Assembly (NCBI GenBank): GCA_014239265.1
Contig: JAAZZH010000003.1
Span: 3,953-67,952, forward strand
Reading direction: 5' to 3'
Source: Actinomycetota bacterium
GTDB lineage: Bacteria > Actinomycetota > Acidimicrobiia > Actinomarinales > Actinomarinaceae
Length of the DNA stretch: 64,000 bases
The notes under the pieces were generated by a model. That model saw nothing but the letters and a program-made list of their open reading frames with translations, searched no databases and was not told where the DNA came from. Shown here piece by piece: positions 2,303 through 59,240 of this stretch; within the stretch, counting starts at the first letter, position 1, and every line of letters begins with the position of its first letter. Both the position numbers and the translations under genes were made by a program.

Positions 2303-3969
2303 CGGTAATAGCCACAGCAGGACATGTTGATCATGGAAAATCAACTCTAGTAAATTTTCTAACTGGACAAGAGACTGATAAACTAGCTGAAGAAAGAAGT
2401 CGTGGCTTAACAATAAATCTTGGATATACATTCTATGAGTATGCAGATCAAATAATCTCCATCGTTGACGTACCGGGGCACAGGGATTTCTTTAAAAACA
2501 CTGTTGCAGGTTTTTCAAATGCCGATGCGGTACTATTCGTCATCGACAGTACTCAAGGTTGGTCTGAACAGTCTGAGCAACACTTTAATGCTTTGATTGG
2601 GTTATCAAAATTGAACATCCTGTTCATCTTTACAAAATTAGATATGAAAGAATCAAATGTTGATGAACAATGGTTAATTGATAAAGTATCAAACATAAAG
2701 GACTTAAATTATAAGATTCTTAAATTTAATAAAAACTCAACAGATAAAGTCTCATTTATCGAAGATATACAAACATTTGTATCAACATGCACTAATGAGT
2801 ATTCATCTTTTTGGATTGATAGAAGTTTTTTAATTGATGGAATTGGTCGGATAGTAACGGGAACTGTTGGTTCAGGTTTTTCTCTTAGTGGTCCATTTAT
2901 TACTACAAGTGGTGAAAAACTAGAAGTAAAGAGTATTGAAAGCGTAAATAAAGAATACACTCAAGAAACTGGCTCACAACGAGTGGCTGTCTCTCTTAAA
3001 AAATCTAGTGGGGTAATACCTAAAAGAGGAGACTTATTATCAAATACTGTGTTGGCTGAATCTATTCACATTTTTATAAAACTAGATACTGAGAGTTCCA
3101 ACGAGATCAGAAATAATACCTTAAAGTTATTTGCTGGAACTTCTAATCATCTAGTTGAAAAAATCTGTCCTCTAAGGATTGGTAAGGAGACTTATGCTAT
3201 CGCAAAGTTAAGTAAACCTGCTGTCCTGCCGATGAAAGAAAAGATGGTACTACATAATATAGATATGGATTCCTTCATTGCCTGTGAATTTATGATGCCA
3301 ATTAATAATAAAAATCTTATAAAACATCTGATTAGAGAATCCAAAAAAAAAGCTTCTTACAATACCCTATATGACTTACTTTATTTTCTACCTTTTAAAT
3401 ATAGTGATCACTCGCTAAGGATTGGACAAATGTTTACTGATGAAGCTAATTTAAATCTGTTAAATCAGAATATAAAAGATAATGCAGAAAACATAAACAA
3501 ATTTGGTATCAAAAAATATCTACACGAAAAATTCTATATTGAAGAAGGAAATGTTCAATATCTCTTTGATGCATTTGATGATATATCTGTTAAAGAAAAT
3601 CAAATTAAGCTAAATAGTGATAATACAGAAGAGGACAAAAAAATACTTAAGCTAATTTCTAAAGAACTTGGTAGCGAATTAAAGGTTCCAGATATAAATC
3701 TTCAAAAATTTGATAGGGAGATTGTCAAAAATCTATTCTTAGAAGATAAGTTGATTAGAATTTCAAAGAATATTCTCTACACGGATAACCATTTTAAAGA
3801 ACTACTCAAAATTATTGACCAGCTACCAACAACATTTACTATTGCTGAATTTAAATCACTCAGTGGACTTTCTAGGAAATACACAATTCCAATATTGGAA
3901 ATTCTAGATAGTAAACAGATTATAAAAAAGATAGATTCTGAAGGAACACGGGAAAAACTAATCAGCTAA
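2299..3969 (+). CDS. selB: Selenocysteine-specific elongation factor
   Basis: N-terminal translational GTPase motifs (AGHVDHGKSTL, DVPGH, TKLD) plus a long C-terminal extension as in the SelB SECIS-binding region. Translationally coupled to selA. Confidence 0.85.
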   Translation: MTVIATAGHVDHGKSTLVNFLTGQETDKLAEERSRGLTINLGYTFYEYADQIISIVDVPGHRDFFKNTVAGFSNADAVLFVIDSTQGWSEQSEQHFNALIGLSKLNILFIFTKLDMKESNVDEQWLIDKVSNIKDLNYKILKFNKNSTDKVSFIEDIQTFVSTCTNEYSSFWIDRSFLIDGIGRIVTGTVGSGFSLSGPFITTSGEKLEVKSIESVNKEYTQETGSQRVAVSLKKSSGVIPKRGDLLSNTVLAESIHIFIKLDTESSNEIRNNTLKLFAGTSNHLVEKICPLRIGKETYAIAKLSKPAVLPMKEKMVLHNIDMDSFIACEFMMPINNKNLIKHLIRESKKKASYNTLYDLLYFLPFKYSDHSLRIGQMFTDEANLNLLNQNIKDNAENINKFGIKKYLHEKFYIEEGNVQYLFDAFDDISVKENQIKLNSDNTEEDKKILKLISKELGSELKVPDINLQKFDREIVKNLFLEDKLIRISKNILYTDNHFKELLKIIDQLPTTFTIAEFKSLSGLSRKYTIPILEILDSKQIIKKIDSEGTREKLIS

Positions 3970-4215
3970 TACTAAGTTTCTCTTTCTTTCAACTTCATTC
4001 ATGCCACCCCAGACGCCAAATGGTTCTGAAATTTCGTACGCTTCTTCTAGACATTCAAATCTTACAGGGCATCCATTACATACTGATTTTGCTTTTACTT
4101 CTCTTTTTTCTCTATCCTCTTTTTTTTCAAATGTAGCAGGTGGGAAGAAAAGATTACTGCTGTGTTGTCTACAAAGTGCATCGTACTGCCATGTCGAAGT
4201 GTTTATTTGTAACAT
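3958..4215 (-). CDS. whiB: WhiB-family Fe-S transcriptional regulator
   Basis: Four-Cys pattern C15...C46-x2-C49-x5-C55 (CNGCPVRFEC), a GVWGG turn and a basic C-terminal tail. Confidence 0.85.
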   Translation of the reverse strand: MLQINTSTWQYDALCRQHSSNLFFPPATFEKKEDREKREVKAKSVCNGCPVRFECLEEAYEISEPFGVWGGMNEVERKRNLVLAD

Positions 4216-4221
4216 ACATAG

Positions 4222-4249
4222 ACAATATTTAAGAAACTAGAAATGGCAA
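4222..4249 (-). promoter_or_regulatory. Candidate whiB promoter (TTGCCA-16 nt-TATTGT) predicting a leaderless transcript
   Basis: -35 at 4249-4244 and -10 at 4227-4222 on the minus strand. The A of the whiB ATG (4215) lies 7 nt past the -10, and there is no SD. Confidence 0.3.
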
Positions 4250-4274
4250 AAGGTTTTTTTCGCGAAGTTTTGGT

Positions 4275-5432
4275 CTATATTGTCAGATTTCCGTCATTCT
4301 CTTGAATTTTATACGACTGGCCTTCGGTATATTTTACCTCCGAGTCAGATTCTACTCTGATCTGTTTTTCATCAACACTTACTAAAACTGCACTACCATC
4401 GAGCTGTTTAATAAAAATTGCCTCTGCGTCTACATAAGAAGTCATTGCGCTTGTATCTGTTGTTAGGCGAGAGCGTATAACTGTCGGGATGGCTACAAAG
4501 TAAAAGAATGCCAAACCGATTGATATAAAACCTAATAGGAACTTATTCACATTGATGACATAATCACTAAACATAACAATTGAGGAGACGACAAGAATGC
4601 CAAATGCCACGACTCCTAAAACTGAAAAATATCCCCTTGAAAGAATTTTTATATATATTAAGTAAGCTATGAGGAATATTGCAATTCCGATATAGCTAAT
4701 CCCAAACTCCTGAAATGGTAGAGACGAGACTATGACTAAGAGACCTCCAATGAAGGCCATTATTCCTGGACCAATGGCAAACAATTCAAGGCCAATTAAA
4801 GCAAAACCTAAAACAAAAAACATATAGGTGAATATTGGTTCTGAAATTGAAATATAGAATCTCTCCATTAGCGAAGGTTTTAGAAAATTAATTGCTTCGA
4901 ACGTGTCTTCTTTAATTGAAAGCTGTACATCATTAGAAAAACTTTCTGAATTATTTATATTTTCTAGAAATGCTCCTATGGAGCCAACAACTAGATAATC
5001 GTTGAAAATTCCCTCCTCGTCTACAATTGTTATTTTTTTTTCTGAAATGTCACAGGTGTGCAGAGAGCAAAATTTATCTTCTAACTCAGTTGTGAATGGA
5101 ACATTAATTATTTCAGTTCCCGGAACATAGCCGAGTATGTCAAATCCAGATGTAATTGCATAGTCTATTTCAATCGAATATGGACCAACCCACATCGCTT
5201 TGACGAAATCTTTATCTGTAATAAGCTCCTCGAAATCAGATACAGCTTTCTCGCTATATTTTGTAGAACTATATTGAATTACTAGTAGGTCATTTTGAGT
5301 GTATTGAGTTTCTTCAATATGTCGTTCAATTGAACGTACATGAGCTGAAGAAAAAACTCCATCAATCTCAAATATATTTAACTGACTTACGCTAATTACT
5401 AGAAGCGCAATTGAAGATAGTATATTAATCAT
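4275..5432 (-). CDS. NfeD-like membrane protein (degenerate N-domain, multi-TM core, C-terminal OB-like tail)
   Basis: Signal/TM segment, a soluble N-domain, about 5 hydrophobic helices, and the tail DGSAVLVSVDEKQIRVESD...YKIQENDGNLTI resembling the NfeD C-terminus. No clear catalytic Ser. Confidence 0.4.
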   Translation of the reverse strand: MINILSSIALLVISVSQLNIFEIDGVFSSAHVRSIERHIEETQYTQNDLLVIQYSSTKYSEKAVSDFEELITDKDFVKAMWVGPYSIEIDYAITSGFDILGYVPGTEIINVPFTTELEDKFCSLHTCDISEKKITIVDEEGIFNDYLVVGSIGAFLENINNSESFSNDVQLSIKEDTFEAINFLKPSLMERFYISISEPIFTYMFFVLGFALIGLELFAIGPGIMAFIGGLLVIVSSLPFQEFGISYIGIAIFLIAYLIYIKILSRGYFSVLGVVAFGILVVSSIVMFSDYVINVNKFLLGFISIGLAFFYFVAIPTVIRSRLTTDTSAMTSYVDAEAIFIKQLDGSAVLVSVDEKQIRVESDSEVKYTEGQSYKIQENDGNLTI

Positions 5433-53326: not shown

Positions 53327-55747
53327 TTATTTTGAAGGCAGAAAGCCTAGAAGCCTATTAGAAAACTTATACTCGCCAACCCAGAAATGATATCCGTCCC
53401 AACTAATTCCTGATGCCATCTTTGTACCCATATTTGTTTTATCAGTTCTTCCTCCAAAGCTCATCGTTGGGGAGCTACCAGCTAAAGCATCTGAAATTGA
53501 GTTCCAACCAATAATCTTGTCGTCGCTTGGGATAAAGAATCCTTTTTCATTGAAGCTTACTTCTGACGGGCAGTCCTGACCTGGTACAGTTTGGTATGAA
53601 GGTGCACTTAGAGAAGAAAGTTCTAACACTTTGAAACTTGATCCACCTGGATAACAACCAATTGCTAAATGTGTATCATTCATATCTATTCTTCCTAAGT
53701 TTGTAAGATTTGGAAGTGAATATGTAGGGTTGTCAGATTTTTCAGGAACACCCTCCCAAATATAAATTGTATCCGAGCCTGAATCTGCAACTGCAAAATA
53801 ACTGCCGTTATAAGCTATTCCTCTTACACCTTGAAATGTGATATTGCCAATAGACTTTTCATTTAAATCAAAACTGTAATTACCTGTGTTGATTGTATCT
53901 TCAATATCGCTCCATCCAAATACACTGTTACCGCCTGCTAAATAAATCTCTTTACCGTGAACAACTAAGTCCCAAGGTGGTTGATCGAACCTTCGCATGA
54001 CTATATCTGGTGTAGCACCAGAACTTCCAGGAAGCTGTTTCCAGATTGAAAGCGATCTATCGAAATCAGATGAGACAAAAAGCATTGAGCCATTAGAGTC
54101 AATTATTGGATTTTGAATAATAAATTCGTCTATCAAAGGGTAGTCTGTCGGTTCATTAGCAAGCAATGCCCAGTCTGGTTTCTCTGTTGGAGAAGTAGGA
54201 ATTGTATCAAAAACAGATATTCGGTTTCCATTATATTCAGCAACAAATAATTTACCATCTACAACTGTTGCTCCTCCATCATCTCCGCCAGCCCATCTAT
54301 GGCCTTCTCCTGGATTAGCTATTTTTACATTTACCTGTAACTCTTGCGTACTGGTAAAAAGTTCATCATAAAAATACATAGTCTCTCCACCTGCAGCAAT
54401 ACCATAAATTTTTGAATCATGAATAGTGCCTGCGAGCCAGTTGTCTATACAGGCATCTGGGTCTCTTGAAGATGTTGGCCATGAAGTCCAAACATGAGTT
54501 GAGCGAGTTCCGTTTGACCCTATACATGGACCATTTGCATTTTCATCACCAAGCATTACATAGTTACCATCTGAAAGAATAGACCTAGGAGTACCAACTT
54601 GACTCGATGTTAAAACAACATCTGGCGATGTGGATGGACCTGGAAAAGAGTTCCAAAATAAAACTGCTTTTGCGACAGTTGCTGTAACAACAACTTTCGT
54701 GCCATCTGACCAAACACCCCAAGGCCACGAGTCACCAAAATTTACATAGTTAGTAATTGGGAGTGCATAATCAGCAGTCTGGCCGGAAGATGTAGGAAAA
54801 GATGTCCAAACAAGGACTCTATTATTATCTGAATCCGCTACTAGTACTTTTCCATCGGGAGTAATAATTACTTGACCTGGAAAATCCATATTGTTTAAAC
54901 CAGTTCCAGAATTATGTGTTGTAAAATTTGCTTGTCCTAAAACTAAATCTGGCGGTGTGTTTGATGATGGAATAGTGTTCCAGATTAATACTCTATTGTT
55001 AAATCTGTCAGTAACGGCTAACTTTCCATAATTTGCTGAAATTGAGACAGGGTGATTTAACTTGTTAGCACCTCCTGCATTATCAAACCCATACCCGGAA
55101 AGTAGAATGTCTCCTGTTTCATTTAACCCATAGCCAGTTTTTCCATTTGAGGTAGCAACAGAGTAACTTGGAGAGTATTCATAAATACTCAAGTCATACC
55201 ATGAACCCGTGTTTTTTTCGTCATCACGATCTTGTTTAGAGTTCCCTGAGGGAGGTGTTGCCTCGTCACCATTATTATCGCCTCCTCCTGCAGGTGGTTG
55301 AGCTACATTGTTTGAACTACTTGGATCTTCAAAACATGCAATCACGATTCCTGACTCAAAACTATCTGGGTTTAAATCAGTGACTATATTTTGATAAATC
55401 TCTGTTGGCAATGACTTAGAGATGCACTCTAAAACCTCATCTTCTGCTTCTTTTAAGATTTCTACAGCTTTTTCTATATCAACACCACCATTTTGAGGTG
55501 GTGGTGGATTGTCTCCTCCTTGAGGTGGTGGCGGATTGTCTCCTCCTTGAGGTGGTGGCGGATTTTCTTGTTTTTTATCATTCTCTGGTAAATTTTCCTC
55601 TCCAGGAGGAAGTGAAGAAGGCATATTTTCCAAATCTGGAGGGTCTGTGGGAAGCGGATTTTCTATAATTTCTGAAGTATTTTCTGGACTAGAGCAGGCT
55701 TGAAAGAGTAGAAAGAGTATTAACCCTATATTTATTGACTTTTTCAT
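53327..55747 (-). CDS. Large surface lipoprotein with a Pro-rich tandem repeat and NHL-like beta-propeller repeats
   Basis: Lipobox-like LFQAC, NPPPPQGGD x about 3, and recurrent D..NNRVL.W / NGNRISVF motifs. Confidence 0.55.
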   Translation of the reverse strand: MKKSINIGLILFLLFQACSSPENTSEIIENPLPTDPPDLENMPSSLPPGEENLPENDKKQENPPPPQGGDNPPPPQGGDNPPPPQNGGVDIEKAVEILKEAEDEVLECISKSLPTEIYQNIVTDLNPDSFESGIVIACFEDPSSSNNVAQPPAGGGDNNGDEATPPSGNSKQDRDDEKNTGSWYDLSIYEYSPSYSVATSNGKTGYGLNETGDILLSGYGFDNAGGANKLNHPVSISANYGKLAVTDRFNNRVLIWNTIPSSNTPPDLVLGQANFTTHNSGTGLNNMDFPGQVIITPDGKVLVADSDNNRVLVWTSFPTSSGQTADYALPITNYVNFGDSWPWGVWSDGTKVVVTATVAKAVLFWNSFPGPSTSPDVVLTSSQVGTPRSILSDGNYVMLGDENANGPCIGSNGTRSTHVWTSWPTSSRDPDACIDNWLAGTIHDSKIYGIAAGGETMYFYDELFTSTQELQVNVKIANPGEGHRWAGGDDGGATVVDGKLFVAEYNGNRISVFDTIPTSPTEKPDWALLANEPTDYPLIDEFIIQNPIIDSNGSMLFVSSDFDRSLSIWKQLPGSSGATPDIVMRRFDQPPWDLVVHGKEIYLAGGNSVFGWSDIEDTINTGNYSFDLNEKSIGNITFQGVRGIAYNGSYFAVADSGSDTIYIWEGVPEKSDNPTYSLPNLTNLGRIDMNDTHLAIGCYPGGSSFKVLELSSLSAPSYQTVPGQDCPSEVSFNEKGFFIPSDDKIIGWNSISDALAGSSPTMSFGGRTDKTNMGTKMASGISWDGYHFWVGEYKFSNRLLGFLPSK
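55493..55568 (-). repeat. 27-bp tandem repeat, about 2.8 copies, in-frame (encodes GGDNPPPPQ units)
   Basis: Units at 55493-55519 and 55520-55546 differ by 1 nt. The third unit decays after 18 nt. Confidence 0.85.
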
Positions 55748-55907
55748 ATATATTCTATTATACGAAAATTTAATGAAATATAAATATTTAATAAATAATC
55801 AGTAGACTTATTAGTAAGACTTCCTTTTGTGTCTTGAACCATTCAAGCAGGGCACGATAAACCAAAAATTACAGCCACAGGGGAGTCATTTGTATTTTTC
55901 CGTAAAT

Positions 55908-57185
55908 TTAATTATTAATATGTATTGTTACGTCTTTTTTAGGAAAAGGGATGGGTGCCGGATTAATTATTAGCGGTTCAGTGGATGAAATCTCCTCAAT
56001 ATTAGAAACCAGCTTATATATGACATTCTTAAATAAATAACTAGCAAAGAATTTTCCAATACATGTATGTGCTCCTCCAGAAAATGGATAATAAGCCTCA
56101 TTTGGTTCATCTATATTTAAAAATCTCCTTGGATCACACTCTTGAGGATTATTAAAATATCGCTCATCATTGTGCAAAACTAACGGACCAATAGCTACAT
56201 AAGTTCCTGCATCTAATTCATAGTTGTCAACAACGGTATCTCTCATGACGTATCGTAAAGAGAAAGGGACAGGGGGGTACATTCGCATTGTCTCTGAGAA
56301 TAAAGATTCACCCTTGATACCATTTTTTAAATCTGAAGTATCAGTAAGTGACATCCCTTTTGCTTCCTCTCTTAACTCTTTATAAAAAGCTTTATCTGTA
56401 GAAAGGTGGTGAATAGCAGTAGTCAAGGTACTGGTTGTGGTGTCATGTGCAGCAAGAAGTAAAAATATCATATGCTCTGCAATCTCATAATTGCTTAAGC
56501 CAGCCTCATGTTTATTTGTTTTAACTAATTCAGCAAACAATGTATTTGACTCAGTATTTACATTTTTCGCCTTGTTTTCAAAATACTTCAGTAAAGACTG
56601 TCTCGCTTTAAGGCCTCTTCTTAATTTTGTAAAAGGAAGTGGAACTCTGACTACAGAGGTTGCAGATTTTATTGCATCTGTGAATAACTTCTCTAATTCT
56701 TTTTGTCGAGAGGTGTCAACTTCATCAAAAAATAATTGAAGTGAGATTTTGAACATCAACTCCTTCATAGCTGAATACAGATTAATTGCTTTACGTTCTT
56801 GAAGCTCTTCAATCCATGTGTCGAGTAGGGGTTGTACAATCTCTAAATAGTTAGCGAGAGCATCTCTCCTGAAAGAATCTTGAAGTAGGCCACGATGGAA
56901 CCTGTGGTCATCAAAATCTCTTAACATCAAACCATTTTCAAATGTTTTCCCTAAAGAAAACTCCCAACCATGTTTAGATGAAAAATTATCTTCAGCATCT
57001 AAAAAAATATGCTTAGTAGCACTAGGGGTCATAAACATGGTTACTCTTTTGTGCAAAATAGAGATCTCAAAAATGTCTCCATATTTTTCCTGAAGGTTTT
57101 TGACCATAGACAGAGCATTGTTGTTAAATTTTATAGAGTGACCAAAGAAAGGGTTTCCTTTATCTAAAGGGGGCTTAATCATCAT
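55908..57185 (-). CDS. Cytochrome P450
   Basis: Heme loop FSGGAHTCIGKFFA, I-helix LLAAHDTTTS, and the ExxR motif in ETMRMYPP. Confidence 0.88.
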   Translation of the reverse strand: MMIKPPLDKGNPFFGHSIKFNNNALSMVKNLQEKYGDIFEISILHKRVTMFMTPSATKHIFLDAEDNFSSKHGWEFSLGKTFENGLMLRDFDDHRFHRGLLQDSFRRDALANYLEIVQPLLDTWIEELQERKAINLYSAMKELMFKISLQLFFDEVDTSRQKELEKLFTDAIKSATSVVRVPLPFTKLRRGLKARQSLLKYFENKAKNVNTESNTLFAELVKTNKHEAGLSNYEIAEHMIFLLLAAHDTTTSTLTTAIHHLSTDKAFYKELREEAKGMSLTDTSDLKNGIKGESLFSETMRMYPPVPFSLRYVMRDTVVDNYELDAGTYVAIGPLVLHNDERYFNNPQECDPRRFLNIDEPNEAYYPFSGGAHTCIGKFFASYLFKNVIYKLVSNIEEISSTEPLIINPAPIPFPKKDVTIHINN

Positions 57186-57221
57186 ATATTTACAACTTTA
57201 AATAAATTAAGTCCAGAAAGC

Positions 57222-57304
57222 AAAAATCCCAGTTGATCTTGCGACCCTCCGGGATTTTCTACACTATTTCATTTTCGGTCTTGCGACTTCTTTTTCTTTA
57301 GTGT
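57222..57304 (-). ncRNA. Candidate ~83-nt small RNA / 5' leader, copy 1
   Basis: Minus strand: promoter TTGCCA-17-TAAATT (57339-57311). Then 6-bp outer stem ACACTA/TAGTGT enclosing GTC-GCAA-GAC. Then AAAATCCC-GGAG-GGTC-GCAA-GATC-AACT-GGGATTTTT (terminator). Confidence 0.4.
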
Positions 57305-57310
57305 TTAATA

Positions 57311-57339
57311 AATTTACCTAATAATGGTCAGTTTGGCAA
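57311..57339 (-). promoter_or_regulatory. Candidate sigma-A-type promoter of the sRNA-like module, copy 1
   Basis: TTGCCA (57339-57334), 17-nt spacer, TAAATT (57316-57311). The only two substitutions between R1 and R2 lie in this spacer. Confidence 0.35.
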
Positions 57340-57418
57340 GAAAATTGAGCTTGTTTTTTTCGCGAACTTTTATACATAATACTTATATTTTTTTAAGTTA
57401 TTTGAATAATATTCACTT

Positions 57419-57898
57419 ATGGAAGTACGGATTGTAACTAAAACTGACTGGTCTAAGGTAAGAGAAATTTATCAACTTGGAATTGATACAGGTGTTGCAA
57501 CATTTGAAACCTCTCCTCCTGTTGAATTTCAAACATGGATAAATAAAGTTGATAAAGAGAATGGGTTTGTATGTATCAAAAATGAGGAATTACTCGGTTG
57601 GGCAACATTAAGTAAAGTTTCATCAAGATGTGCTTATGAAGGGGTGGGTGAAGTTTCAATTTATGTAGATCCTAAATATCAGAAACAATTAGTTGGGGAA
57701 GCCCTCTATGAGACTCTTGAGCGTTCTGCTCTGAAAACTGGGTATTGGACTTTACAAGCACAGCTATTTACACAGAATGTTGCTTCAAAGGCTTTTTTTG
57801 AAAAACATGGTTTTAGAGAAGTTGGCATAAGAAAAAAGATTGGTCAGCTTAATGGTGAGTGGGTAGATAATTATCTGTTTGAGAAAAACTTCAACTAA
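57419..57898 (+). CDS. GNAT N-acetyltransferase of the phosphinothricin/methionine-sulfoximine acetyltransferase (PAT/MddA) type
   Basis: IYQLGIDTGVATFET, GWATLSKVSSRCAYEGVGEVSIYV, N..S..FFEKHGF and G.....W.D pattern typical of PAT-family GNATs. Confidence 0.78.
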   Translation: MEVRIVTKTDWSKVREIYQLGIDTGVATFETSPPVEFQTWINKVDKENGFVCIKNEELLGWATLSKVSSRCAYEGVGEVSIYVDPKYQKQLVGEALYETLERSALKTGYWTLQAQLFTQNVASKAFFEKHGFREVGIRKKIGQLNGEWVDNYLFEKNFN

Positions 57899-58053
57899 AA
57901 GCAAAAATCCCAGTTGATCTTGCGACCCTCCGGGATTTTCTACACTATTTCATTTTCGGTCTTGCGACTTCTTTTTCTTTAGTGTTTAATAAATTTACCT
58001 AACAATGGTGAGTTTGGCAAGAAAATCATTAATCTATTTTTCGCGAACATTTT
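57898..58053. repeat. Direct repeat copy 2 (R2) of the ~156-bp module
   Basis: See R1. Starts at the last base of the PAT stop codon and ends within the stop codon of the 58052-58525 ORF. Confidence 0.92.
57903..57985 (-). ncRNA. Candidate ~83-nt small RNA, copy 2 (transcribed part identical to copy 1)
   Basis: Same promoter (58020-57992), hairpins and terminator as copy 1. Points into the 3' end of the PAT gene (antisense). Confidence 0.4.
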
Positions 58054-58525
58054 AGATATTTAATTCATTTAGTAGGCTCTCTAACTCGTCTGCCTCAATG
58101 TTTTCGACAAATACAGAATAGGTCTCATCATTAAATGTAAATTTAACATAGTCTTCATGCAGAACTGCTTCCTGCAGGTCTTGTATGTCTTTAATAACTG
58201 TAAGAAGTTTTTCAGAAGTTCTCATTGCTATTTTATGTTCTGATATTTCAAGAACTGGCTGAAAAATACTTTGTACAGCAGTAAAGAGTTGGAAACCCCC
58301 AACGAGTAAAATGAGATAGTATAGAACTTCCTCACGGATGTTTGACCCAAATTCATTCAGTGAAATATAATTTTTTAAAAAATTCCTAAAAGGGCCATTA
58401 AAAATATTATCAATAGACACATAAGTAAGAGAAAAGCCAGTAAGAAGTATCGGCAGCATCTTCTGCGGTGATCTATAAAGTTTTCTGTTCATTATTTTAT
58501 TTCTTTTCCTATCAGAATAACTCAA
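58052..58525 (-). CDS. Hypothetical membrane protein
   Basis: Basic N-terminus, two TM segments and an acidic C-terminal domain. The start codon is ambiguous (several ATGs). Confidence 0.4.
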   Translation of the reverse strand: MSYSDRKRNKIMNRKLYRSPQKMLPILLTGFSLTYVSIDNIFNGPFRNFLKNYISLNEFGSNIREEVLYYLILLVGGFQLFTAVQSIFQPVLEISEHKIAMRTSEKLLTVIKDIQDLQEAVLHEDYVKFTFNDETYSVFVENIEADELESLLNELNI

Positions 58526-58526
58526 T

Positions 58527-59240
58527 TTGGCTATTGTTTTTGTAATGGAAATTGTACTTATAAGACATGGTCAACCAGAGTGGTTAAAAAATGATCAATA
58601 TAATCTCGATCCTGGTTTAACTGAAAAAGGAACTAAGCAGGCTCTACTATCTTCTAGTATTTTTACTAAGGGGGAAGTTGATAAAATATGGGTATCCCCA
58701 CTTTTACGCGCCCAACAAACTCTTGCGCCGTTTAAAGAAGCCGGTATAGCTGAAGATATTAGTGTTCACGACTGGCTGCAGGAAATGCGAGACAATGAAG
58801 AAGTAGACCTCGTTGGTAAGTCAAATAAAGAAATTGAAGAATTTTTCATTGAGCGTAATAGTAGGTCTTTTGAGGAATGGTTGGTCAGCAATCATGGTGA
58901 GTATATGAAAACTTTTAGTGAAAATATAATTACAAAGCTTGGTGAAAATCTTTCAGAGCTTGGAATAGTCAGTATTGACAGCAGATATGATAGACTTTTT
59001 AATCTTGAAAAGAATGAGACAGAAAAACTCATGATTATCTCTCATGCGGGAACAATGTCTGTACTTATTTCTTATTTTTTAAATGTGCCTTTGTATCCAT
59101 GGACGTGGAGACAGTTTCTACCAAGACATGCGGGTCATACAATTTTGAAATCTACAAAAATTTCATCAGGTCATTTCTTCAGATTAAAAGAATTCAATAA
59201 TGTATCTTTTATGGATGGGGACGAACTTAAAACTTACTAG
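58527..59240 (+). CDS. Histidine phosphatase (phosphoglycerate-mutase-like) family protein
   Basis: LIRHGQPEW (RHG motif) and ISHAGT. The tracked TTG start may be replaced by the ATG six codons downstream (MEIVLIRHG). Confidence 0.75.
   Translation: MAIVFVMEIVLIRHGQPEWLKNDQYNLDPGLTEKGTKQALLSSSIFTKGEVDKIWVSPLLRAQQTLAPFKEAGIAEDISVHDWLQEMRDNEEVDLVGKSNKEIEEFFIERNSRSFEEWLVSNHGEYMKTFSENIITKLGENLSELGIVSIDSRYDRLFNLEKNETEKLMIISHAGTMSVLISYFLNVPLYPWTWRQFLPRHAGHTILKSTKISSGHFFRLKEFNNVSFMDGDELKTY

Follow-up and report, generated by a model that had tools for sequence, protein, structure and literature searches.

A repeated module bordering gene cassettes in Candidatus Actinomarina probably encodes a new family of structured small RNAs

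A 64,000-nucleotide stretch of an Actinomarinaceae contig (the window) contains two copies of a module, here called R. We propose that R is probably the gene of a stand-alone, terminated small RNA acting in trans, and that the same module also terminates transcription and offers homology for recombination. A first-pass annotation of the window had described each copy as a complete small-RNA gene; the Rfam comparison, the homologues, the covariation of the stems, the folding energy and the conservation of the promoter all speak for a structured small-RNA gene. The proposal is built on the anatomy, conservation, covariation, strand, copy number and gene contexts of R. Candidatus Actinomarina is among the smallest and most abundant free-living marine bacteria, and R is one of the few visible regulatory parts in its genomes.

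A repeat search over the whole window returned a single direct repeat on the minus strand, 155 nt long, with 93% identity between its two copies (Table 1). Every small-RNA-gene motif listed in the first-pass annotation was found on the minus strand of copy 1. Aligned with each other, the copies are identical across 57217-57324 and 57898-58005. The annotation had counted two substitutions, both in the promoter spacer; that pair is there and the part predicted to be transcribed is indeed identical, but the total is 11 mismatches, nine of which lie between the TTCGCGAA box and the -35 hexamer.

Table 1 Features of the R copies and of the adjoining genes, in window coordinates.
Feature	Position	Strand	Basis
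R copy 1, whole module (upstream box, putative promoter, predicted RNA, terminator)	57217..57371	-	direct repeat, two-copy alignment, covariance-model match (112 bits)
R copy 2, whole module	57898..58052	-	repeat, two-copy alignment, covariance-model match (111 bits)
Upstream box TTCGCGAA and A-tract, copy 1	57354..57366 (box 57366-57359)	-	at least 97% conserved, 116 distinct copies
Upstream box TCGCGAAAA, copy 2	58038-58046	-	conserved box
Putative sigma-70-type promoter, copy 1 (TTGCCA 57339-57334, 17 nt, TAAATT 57316-57311)	57311..57339	-	promoter scan and conservation
Putative sigma-70-type promoter, copy 2	58020-57992	-	counterpart of the copy 1 promoter
5' domain of the predicted RNA (P1 around A-rich internal loops, and hairpin P2)	57261..57304	-	fold, compensatory changes
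Helix P1 (ACACUA with UAGUGU)	57304-57299 with 57266-57261	-	fold
Hairpin P2 (GUC-GCAA-GAC)	57287-57278	-	fold
3' domain (predicted terminator hairpin, 57259-57222, and tail UUUUUGCUUU)	57217..57259	-	fold, pairing conservation
Predicted RNA, copy 2 (same sequence as the copy 1 RNA)	57898..57985	-	two-copy alignment, covariance model
pat/GNAT acetyltransferase cassette between the two R copies	57419..57898	+	Pfam Acetyltransf_4, E = 1e-19
Cytochrome P450 gene downstream of copy 1	55908..57185	-	Pfam p450, E = 2e-55

Three blocks upstream of the predicted RNA are conserved among 116 distinct copies: the TCGCGAAAA box (at least 97%), the TTGC of the -35 and the TAnnTT of the -10. The spacer of 17-18 nt between the hexamers varies freely, and so does most of the sequence between the box and the -35. 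Hexamers kept around a freely varying spacer point to a promoter, as the annotation had predicted.

The TCGCGAAAA box occurs at three sites in the window, against 0.28 expected. The third, at 4257-4265 on the minus strand, lies upstream of an 85-aa WhiB-family gene (ORF 3958-4215); in that region (4240-4275, minus strand) a TCGCGAAAAAAAC box is followed by TTGCCA. Upstream of whiB orthologues of 67-85% identity the box and TTGCCA are kept while their flanks vary, and the distance from box to -35 is 10 nt, or one helical turn, shorter than in R. We infer that the TCGCGA box may be an upstream promoter element common to R and the whiB-like gene, either an activator site or an UP-like element. 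The arrangement suggests a common regulator for the whiB-like gene and the R RNAs.

Read from the minus strand, the 88-nt RNA folds with -26.9 kcal/mol (z = -4.56), and none of 200 shuffled sequences folds as well; the plus strand reaches only z = -1.55, so folding beyond the shuffled controls is a property of the minus strand. Likewise, a covariance model scores the window copies at 111-112 bits on the minus strand versus 12-13 bits on the plus strand, and the two R copies are its only matches in the window. The predicted 3' hairpin is made of an 11-bp stem, a 2x2 purine internal loop and an apical GGUC-GCAA-GAUC of 4 bp, followed by UUUUUGCUUU.

The stems covary among homologues, and both GNRA loops are kept. 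In 98 distinct sequences aligned to the covariance model, a fit that itself favours pairing, 99.0% of the cells of the RNA part form a standard pair (30-55% in slid controls) and 9 of 23 pairs have changed on both sides, values reached by none of 500 shuffles. RNAalifold run on a MAFFT alignment of 13 sequences, independently of the model, gave the same structure with four covarying pairs.

All five pairs of P1 show compensatory changes in the same 98 sequences. The consensus of P1 among relatives is CUAUC/GAUAG (CUA and two further pairs); in the lineage of the window it extends outwards instead through ACA/UGU. The ACACTA/TAGTGT helix of the first-pass annotation therefore holds for that lineage, but its outer ACA/UGU pairs are not conserved across relatives. 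Of the 98 sequences, 45 have G-C and 49 have A-U as the outermost pair of P2, and two pairs of the terminator stem alternate among G-C, A-U and G-U. In the 3' hairpin 99.9% of cells are paired and the loop is GNRA in all copies. Tetraloop variation stays within this class (GCAA, GAAA, GUAA, GGAA, GAGA); in two loci (L051 and L099) the change from GCAA to GAGA goes together with a change from U-A to C-G in the apical closing stem. The most divergent copy (L055) has both small helices replaced in a compensatory way.

The G-U pair of the apical stem is retained in 96 of 98 sequences, and on the opposite strand it would be a C-A mismatch. Because such G-U pairs are conserved, we assign the RNA to the minus strand. 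The alignment of copies holds no conserved reading frame, the window copy offering AUG-AAA-UAG only. Coding ORFs of 62-77 aa, picked up by an ORF scan in one subtype of R (subtype B, below), were rejected, as 1-nt indels break the frame between copies. An apparent 80-nt insertion in one copy (locus L005) turned out to be a run of N from scaffolding.

A pattern derived from the terminator hairpin was scanned over 185,579 species genomes. It returned 86 stretches, essentially all from single-amplified and metagenome-assembled genomes of Ca. Actinomarina/Actinomarinales (OCS155); the pattern was exact, and more distant relatives outside the order would therefore be missed. A covariance model trained on 13 copies and run on these loci found 121 true matches in 80 of the 86, which places homologues of R in many related genomes. 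Multi-contig assemblies and complete chromosomes hold two to four copies per genome, typically three.

Two subtypes can be told apart by their tails, UUUUUGCUUU in A and UUUUCACUUU in B; the 5' end of B also differs from that of A. In contigs of relatives with a P450 of only 68-88% identity, R is always present just upstream of that gene, with more copies nearby. P450 homologues bear the names Candidatus Actinomarina and Acidimicrobiaceae, and the public runs that hold the R locus are marine metagenomes. One contig binned as a Methanosarcinales archaeon MAG (L074, CAZRZP010000018.1) carries an R copy with Actinomarina neighbours (His_Phos, DNA-alkylation repair); its archaeal label is probably a binning error.

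Actinomarina genomes have a median intergenic spacer of 2-3 bp and are nearly repeat-free (PMC7771536; bioRxiv 10.64898/2026.04.03.716425). Keeping about three non-coding modules of 155 nt in such a genome therefore implies selection. In a survey of 84 complete Actinomarina genomes, most had only two internal repeats, the longest with a median of 152 bp, and these were left uninterpreted (bioRxiv 10.64898/2026.04.03.716425). They are probably copies of R.

No match to Rfam 15 was obtained at gathering thresholds anywhere in the window. With the limit raised to E = 10, only weak hairpin-type matches on the wrong strand appeared, the best being the rimP leader with 21-25 bits against a threshold of 47. 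The annotation, too, had been unable to place the RNA in a family, and the search agrees that R lies outside the known ones. A full-text literature search for small RNAs of Actinomarina or OCS155 found no description. We judge R to be a new RNA family, although of a kind already known, to be added to Rfam. It also provides a defined promoter architecture, with an upstream box common to a whiB-like regulator.

Yfr2-5 of Prochlorococcus and Synechococcus, PrrF1/PrrF2, Qrr and OmrA/OmrB are examples of multicopy small-RNA families in which each gene comes with its own promoter and intrinsic terminator, in some cases as tandem copies. R resembles them in its length of about 85 nt, its own conserved putative promoter and predicted Rho-independent terminator, as well as in its several near-identical paralogues per genome and its tandem pairs in a streamlined marine genome. 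Unlike them, it has A-rich unpaired parts and two GNRA-capped hairpins, is tied to gene boundaries and cassette borders, and shows no sequence or model similarity to them. With the 6C RNA (RF01066) R has in common that it is an actinobacterial small RNA, predicted to form two hairpins and a terminator; 6C is defined by C-rich loops, while the tetraloops of R are GNRA and its internal loops A-rich, and R gave no Rfam match at E = 10.

The surroundings of the window copies agree with their annotation: copy 1 points into the P450 gene, whose ATG is 32 nt away, and copy 2 ends where the convergent gene pat has its stop codon; at the other side, ORF157 (58052-58525, minus strand) has its stop codon where copy 2 begins.

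The 32-nt spacing suggested that R could be a leader of the P450 gene. In general terms, R would then be a cis-acting 5' leader of the attenuator or riboswitch type, with a promoter that drives the next gene and a terminator that is a stop overcome by a ligand or protein. Promoter, structured RNA, terminator and gene follow one another as in a classic attenuator. Nearly all copies point the same way as the next gene, and many lie only 18-38 nt before its start codon, as at the P450, the 5'-3' exonuclease and one lipoprotein family, which counts against the stand-alone reading. Furthermore, the R-exonuclease and R-P450 pairs persist though the upstream genes change.

Against a leader, the genes downstream of R (P450, 5'-3' exonuclease, lipoproteins, zinc-type dehydrogenase, membrane proteins) are functionally unrelated and form no coherent set, and they lie at distances between 18 and over 300 nt from R. 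Some copies are followed instead by a tRNA gene, a reversed GNAT gene or another R. Among 41 intervals between successive copies, 14 are gene-free tandem pairs of 183-227 nt, each member having its own box, putative promoter and predicted terminator. Conserved antiterminator pairing was not apparent in the consensus fold or, by inspection, in the alignment.

In genes downstream of R, a TAnnnT hexamer precedes the ATG or GTG by 6-9 nt and is conserved within each gene family. This spacing is the usual layout of leaderless actinobacterial mRNAs. Examples from genes next to R in the window are at 57400-57419 (TAATAT-TCACTT-ATG of pat), 57186-57200 and 55748-55775, and the pattern suggests that leaderless mRNAs are common in Actinomarina. 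Such -10 boxes are short motifs in AT-rich DNA, which weakens the stand-alone case. We nevertheless set the P450 leader aside in view of the tandem copies, those before tRNA or reversed genes, and the downstream -10 boxes. A leader thus appears unlikely, and R is probably a stand-alone gene on the strength of its sequence and contexts.

In five loci (L021, L035, L052, L070 and L086) a tRNA gene lies about 35-45 nt after a subtype B copy and is followed by a gene for an 86-aa membrane protein. From its anticodon loop, CTCGTAA, this is probably a tRNA-Thr. The extra copy that genomes carry outside the variable island described below precedes either a tRNA gene or the 5'-3' exonuclease gene; in the latter position it comes after metX, metY or metK according to species.

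Most copies begin within a few bases of the stop codon of the upstream gene and are co-oriented with it; the R terminator very probably also ends that gene. The hairpin is preceded by an A-run and followed by a U-run, so it would read as a terminator on both strands, and at pat it faces both convergent genes. A simple terminator scan did not flag it, presumably because of the internal loop.

Position and hairpin, together with the way R parts cassettes in the island, are also what would be seen if R served chiefly to punctuate the genome, as a portable element that terminates or insulates in both directions, was repeated as a remnant of cassette insertion and yielded a functionless RNA. Termination, however, needs only a hairpin of about 40 nt; yet the box, the -35, the -10 and the covarying, GNRA-capped 5' domain are conserved across the order, and tandem A-B pairs exist with nothing to insulate. 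We regard mere punctuation as distinctly unlikely. The terminator hairpin is itself more conserved in sequence than a terminator needs, a point that counts against the stand-alone RNA we favour.

DapZ and MicL are small RNAs of the 3'-UTR type that have their own promoter and use the terminator of the upstream mRNA. R is like them in beginning at or near an upstream stop codon in the same orientation, its terminator being the only one available to the upstream gene. It differs in that its promoter comes after the stop codon and not within the coding sequence, and in that the module follows many different genes; it is portable rather than bound to one mRNA.

The copies of the window belong to a variable island located between the His_Phos/ORF150 genes on one side and the lipoprotein and endonuclease-IV-like genes on the other. 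The genes called around it include a His_Phos phosphatase, a 150-aa protein, acyltransferases and a permease. In its simplest state the island reads ORF150, R(A), R(B). Fuller islands contain one or more single-gene cassettes, each set off by an R copy: a reversed GNAT gene, a 176-aa membrane protein, P450, dehydrogenase or lipoprotein. The window has ORF157, R, pat, R, P450. In 15 loci the P450 gene has an R copy on either side, in other loci the island has no P450 gene, and pat is missing from two related contigs (L013 and L014).

In one contig read from a public run (X57), 57329 is joined directly to 58011; 681 nt are missing, and 16 nt at the joint are common to both sides. This joint is a pat-less allele, in which one R separates ORF157 from P450, so natural populations are polymorphic for the presence of pat. 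A low-depth joint from 57379 to 57897 occurs in another run. We propose that the identical cores of about 110 nt make the copies substrates for homologous recombination, which would explain both the R-pat-R arrangement and the pat-less allele.

Could R instead be a recombination site at the DNA level, or a miniature mobile element of the attC, MITE or Correia type, with cassettes moved by site-specific recombination or transposition? The number of copies fits, n cassettes going with about n+1 R copies per island; the copies contain hairpins, and close relatives differ in cassette content. But the R sequence shows no terminal inverted repeats of the MITE or Correia type, its ends AAAGTTCGCG... 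and ...TTTTTGCTTT not being inverted repeats, and no target-site duplications. No integrase or transposase was found in the examined loci, and each genome has only two to four copies. The retained G-U pairs and GNRA loops indicate that selection acts on a single RNA strand, and the joint of the pat-less allele falls inside the 16-nt stretch common to both copies, as homologous recombination predicts. A recombination site or mobile element of this kind is thus highly improbable.

A phage origin or att site was likewise rejected: the sole match on viral contigs is a chance one inside a coding ORF, lacking the rest of R, and a scan for the promoter pattern came back empty. Integron attC sites and their cassette arrays resemble R in that repeated structured elements part single-gene cassettes whose content differs between strains. 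R differs from attC, having no integrase, no conserved attC core sites and no imperfect palindrome spanning the site; it has a putative promoter and an RNA-type structure instead, and the junction seen fits homologous recombination.

A further reading, possible but doubtful, takes the R copies as the joints of a cassette array without integrase, kept in part for the gain, loss and exchange of cassettes between strains. Its ground state would be the tandem small-RNA pair A-B, each added cassette bringing one R, and exchange would proceed through the portable homology block or, less likely, by an RNA- or hairpin-guided mechanism. If true, a small-RNA gene would double as the recombination module of a flexible island in a highly abundant ocean bacterium. 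In any case R marks the borders of a small cassette island, so that gene gain and loss there can be analysed in complete genomes.

We now outline how R, as the stand-alone small RNA that we favour, would work. Transcription would start about 7 nt after the -10, from a TTGC -35 and a TAnnTT -10 set 17-18 nt apart and aided by the upstream TCGCGA box and A-tract. The resulting RNA of about 85 nt would fold into a 5' domain, with a helix of 5-6 bp, A-rich loops and a 3-bp GNRA-capped hairpin, and a long 3' hairpin with a purine internal loop and a second GNRA cap, which together with the U-run would end the transcript. The same hairpin may terminate in both directions, stopping the upstream gene as well as a convergent one such as pat, and would insulate the next gene, which would use its own -10. 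The RNA may act in trans and either use its unpaired, A-rich stretches for base-pairing or bind a protein.

Each genome has about three copies of subtypes A and B, at least two of them in the variable island and one more upstream of the 5'-3' exonuclease or a tRNA gene; on this proposal, recombination between R copies would move the cassettes. Firing of the promoter, termination at the hairpin and cassette movement by recombination between copies are what we infer from these features. R is of interest mainly for its organism, for the extreme streamlining of the genome and for the link to cassette borders.

Public runs labelled as RNA that hold the locus consist of unstranded assembler contigs. 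In runs X25-X32, which carry a metatranscriptomic label, depth over 55700-58750 is flat across four adjacent genes on both strands. The shared repeat contig is 1.8-3.2 times as deep as its flanks in RNA runs and 1.6-2.9 times as deep in DNA runs, which is what copy number alone would give. For Actinomarina, these runs labelled as metatranscriptomes behave like DNA or are otherwise uninformative on expression. An apparent transcript boundary at copy 2 was discarded: coverage stopped there at 95% likeness, but at 85% the stop vanished, ORF157 being equally covered, and the ratio in DNA runs was the same. Oligo-dT libraries and other RNA runs yielded only a few single, strandless reads; one of those over R from the oligo-dT libraries starts exactly at 57217.

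A second conserved non-coding element, E2, is located at 55815-55895, between the stop codon of P450 (55908) and the ATG of an NHL-lipoprotein gene (55747); written on the minus strand, it reads ...GACTCCCCTGTGGCTGTAATTTTTGGTTTATCG...GGTTCAAGACACAAAAGGAAGTC... Its 54 distinct versions among Actinomarina loci all lie immediately upstream of a lipoprotein or endonuclease-IV-like gene, and many directly follow an R copy. It has a closing helix, GACUCC/GGAAGUC, and an inner helix that changes between CCUUG/CAAGG and CUUU/AAAG, which suggests that E2 is a structured RNA; RNAalifold gave no confident fold for it, and Rfam no match.

Pairing between R and E2 was considered and rejected. Duplex energies were no better than those of shuffled sequences (mean z = -0.6), and the complementarity seen by eye did not covary between lineages. 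Finally, the NHL-repeat lipoprotein gene contains, at 55493-55573, three tandem units of 27 nt that encode the repeated peptide NPPPPQGGD near its N-terminus.
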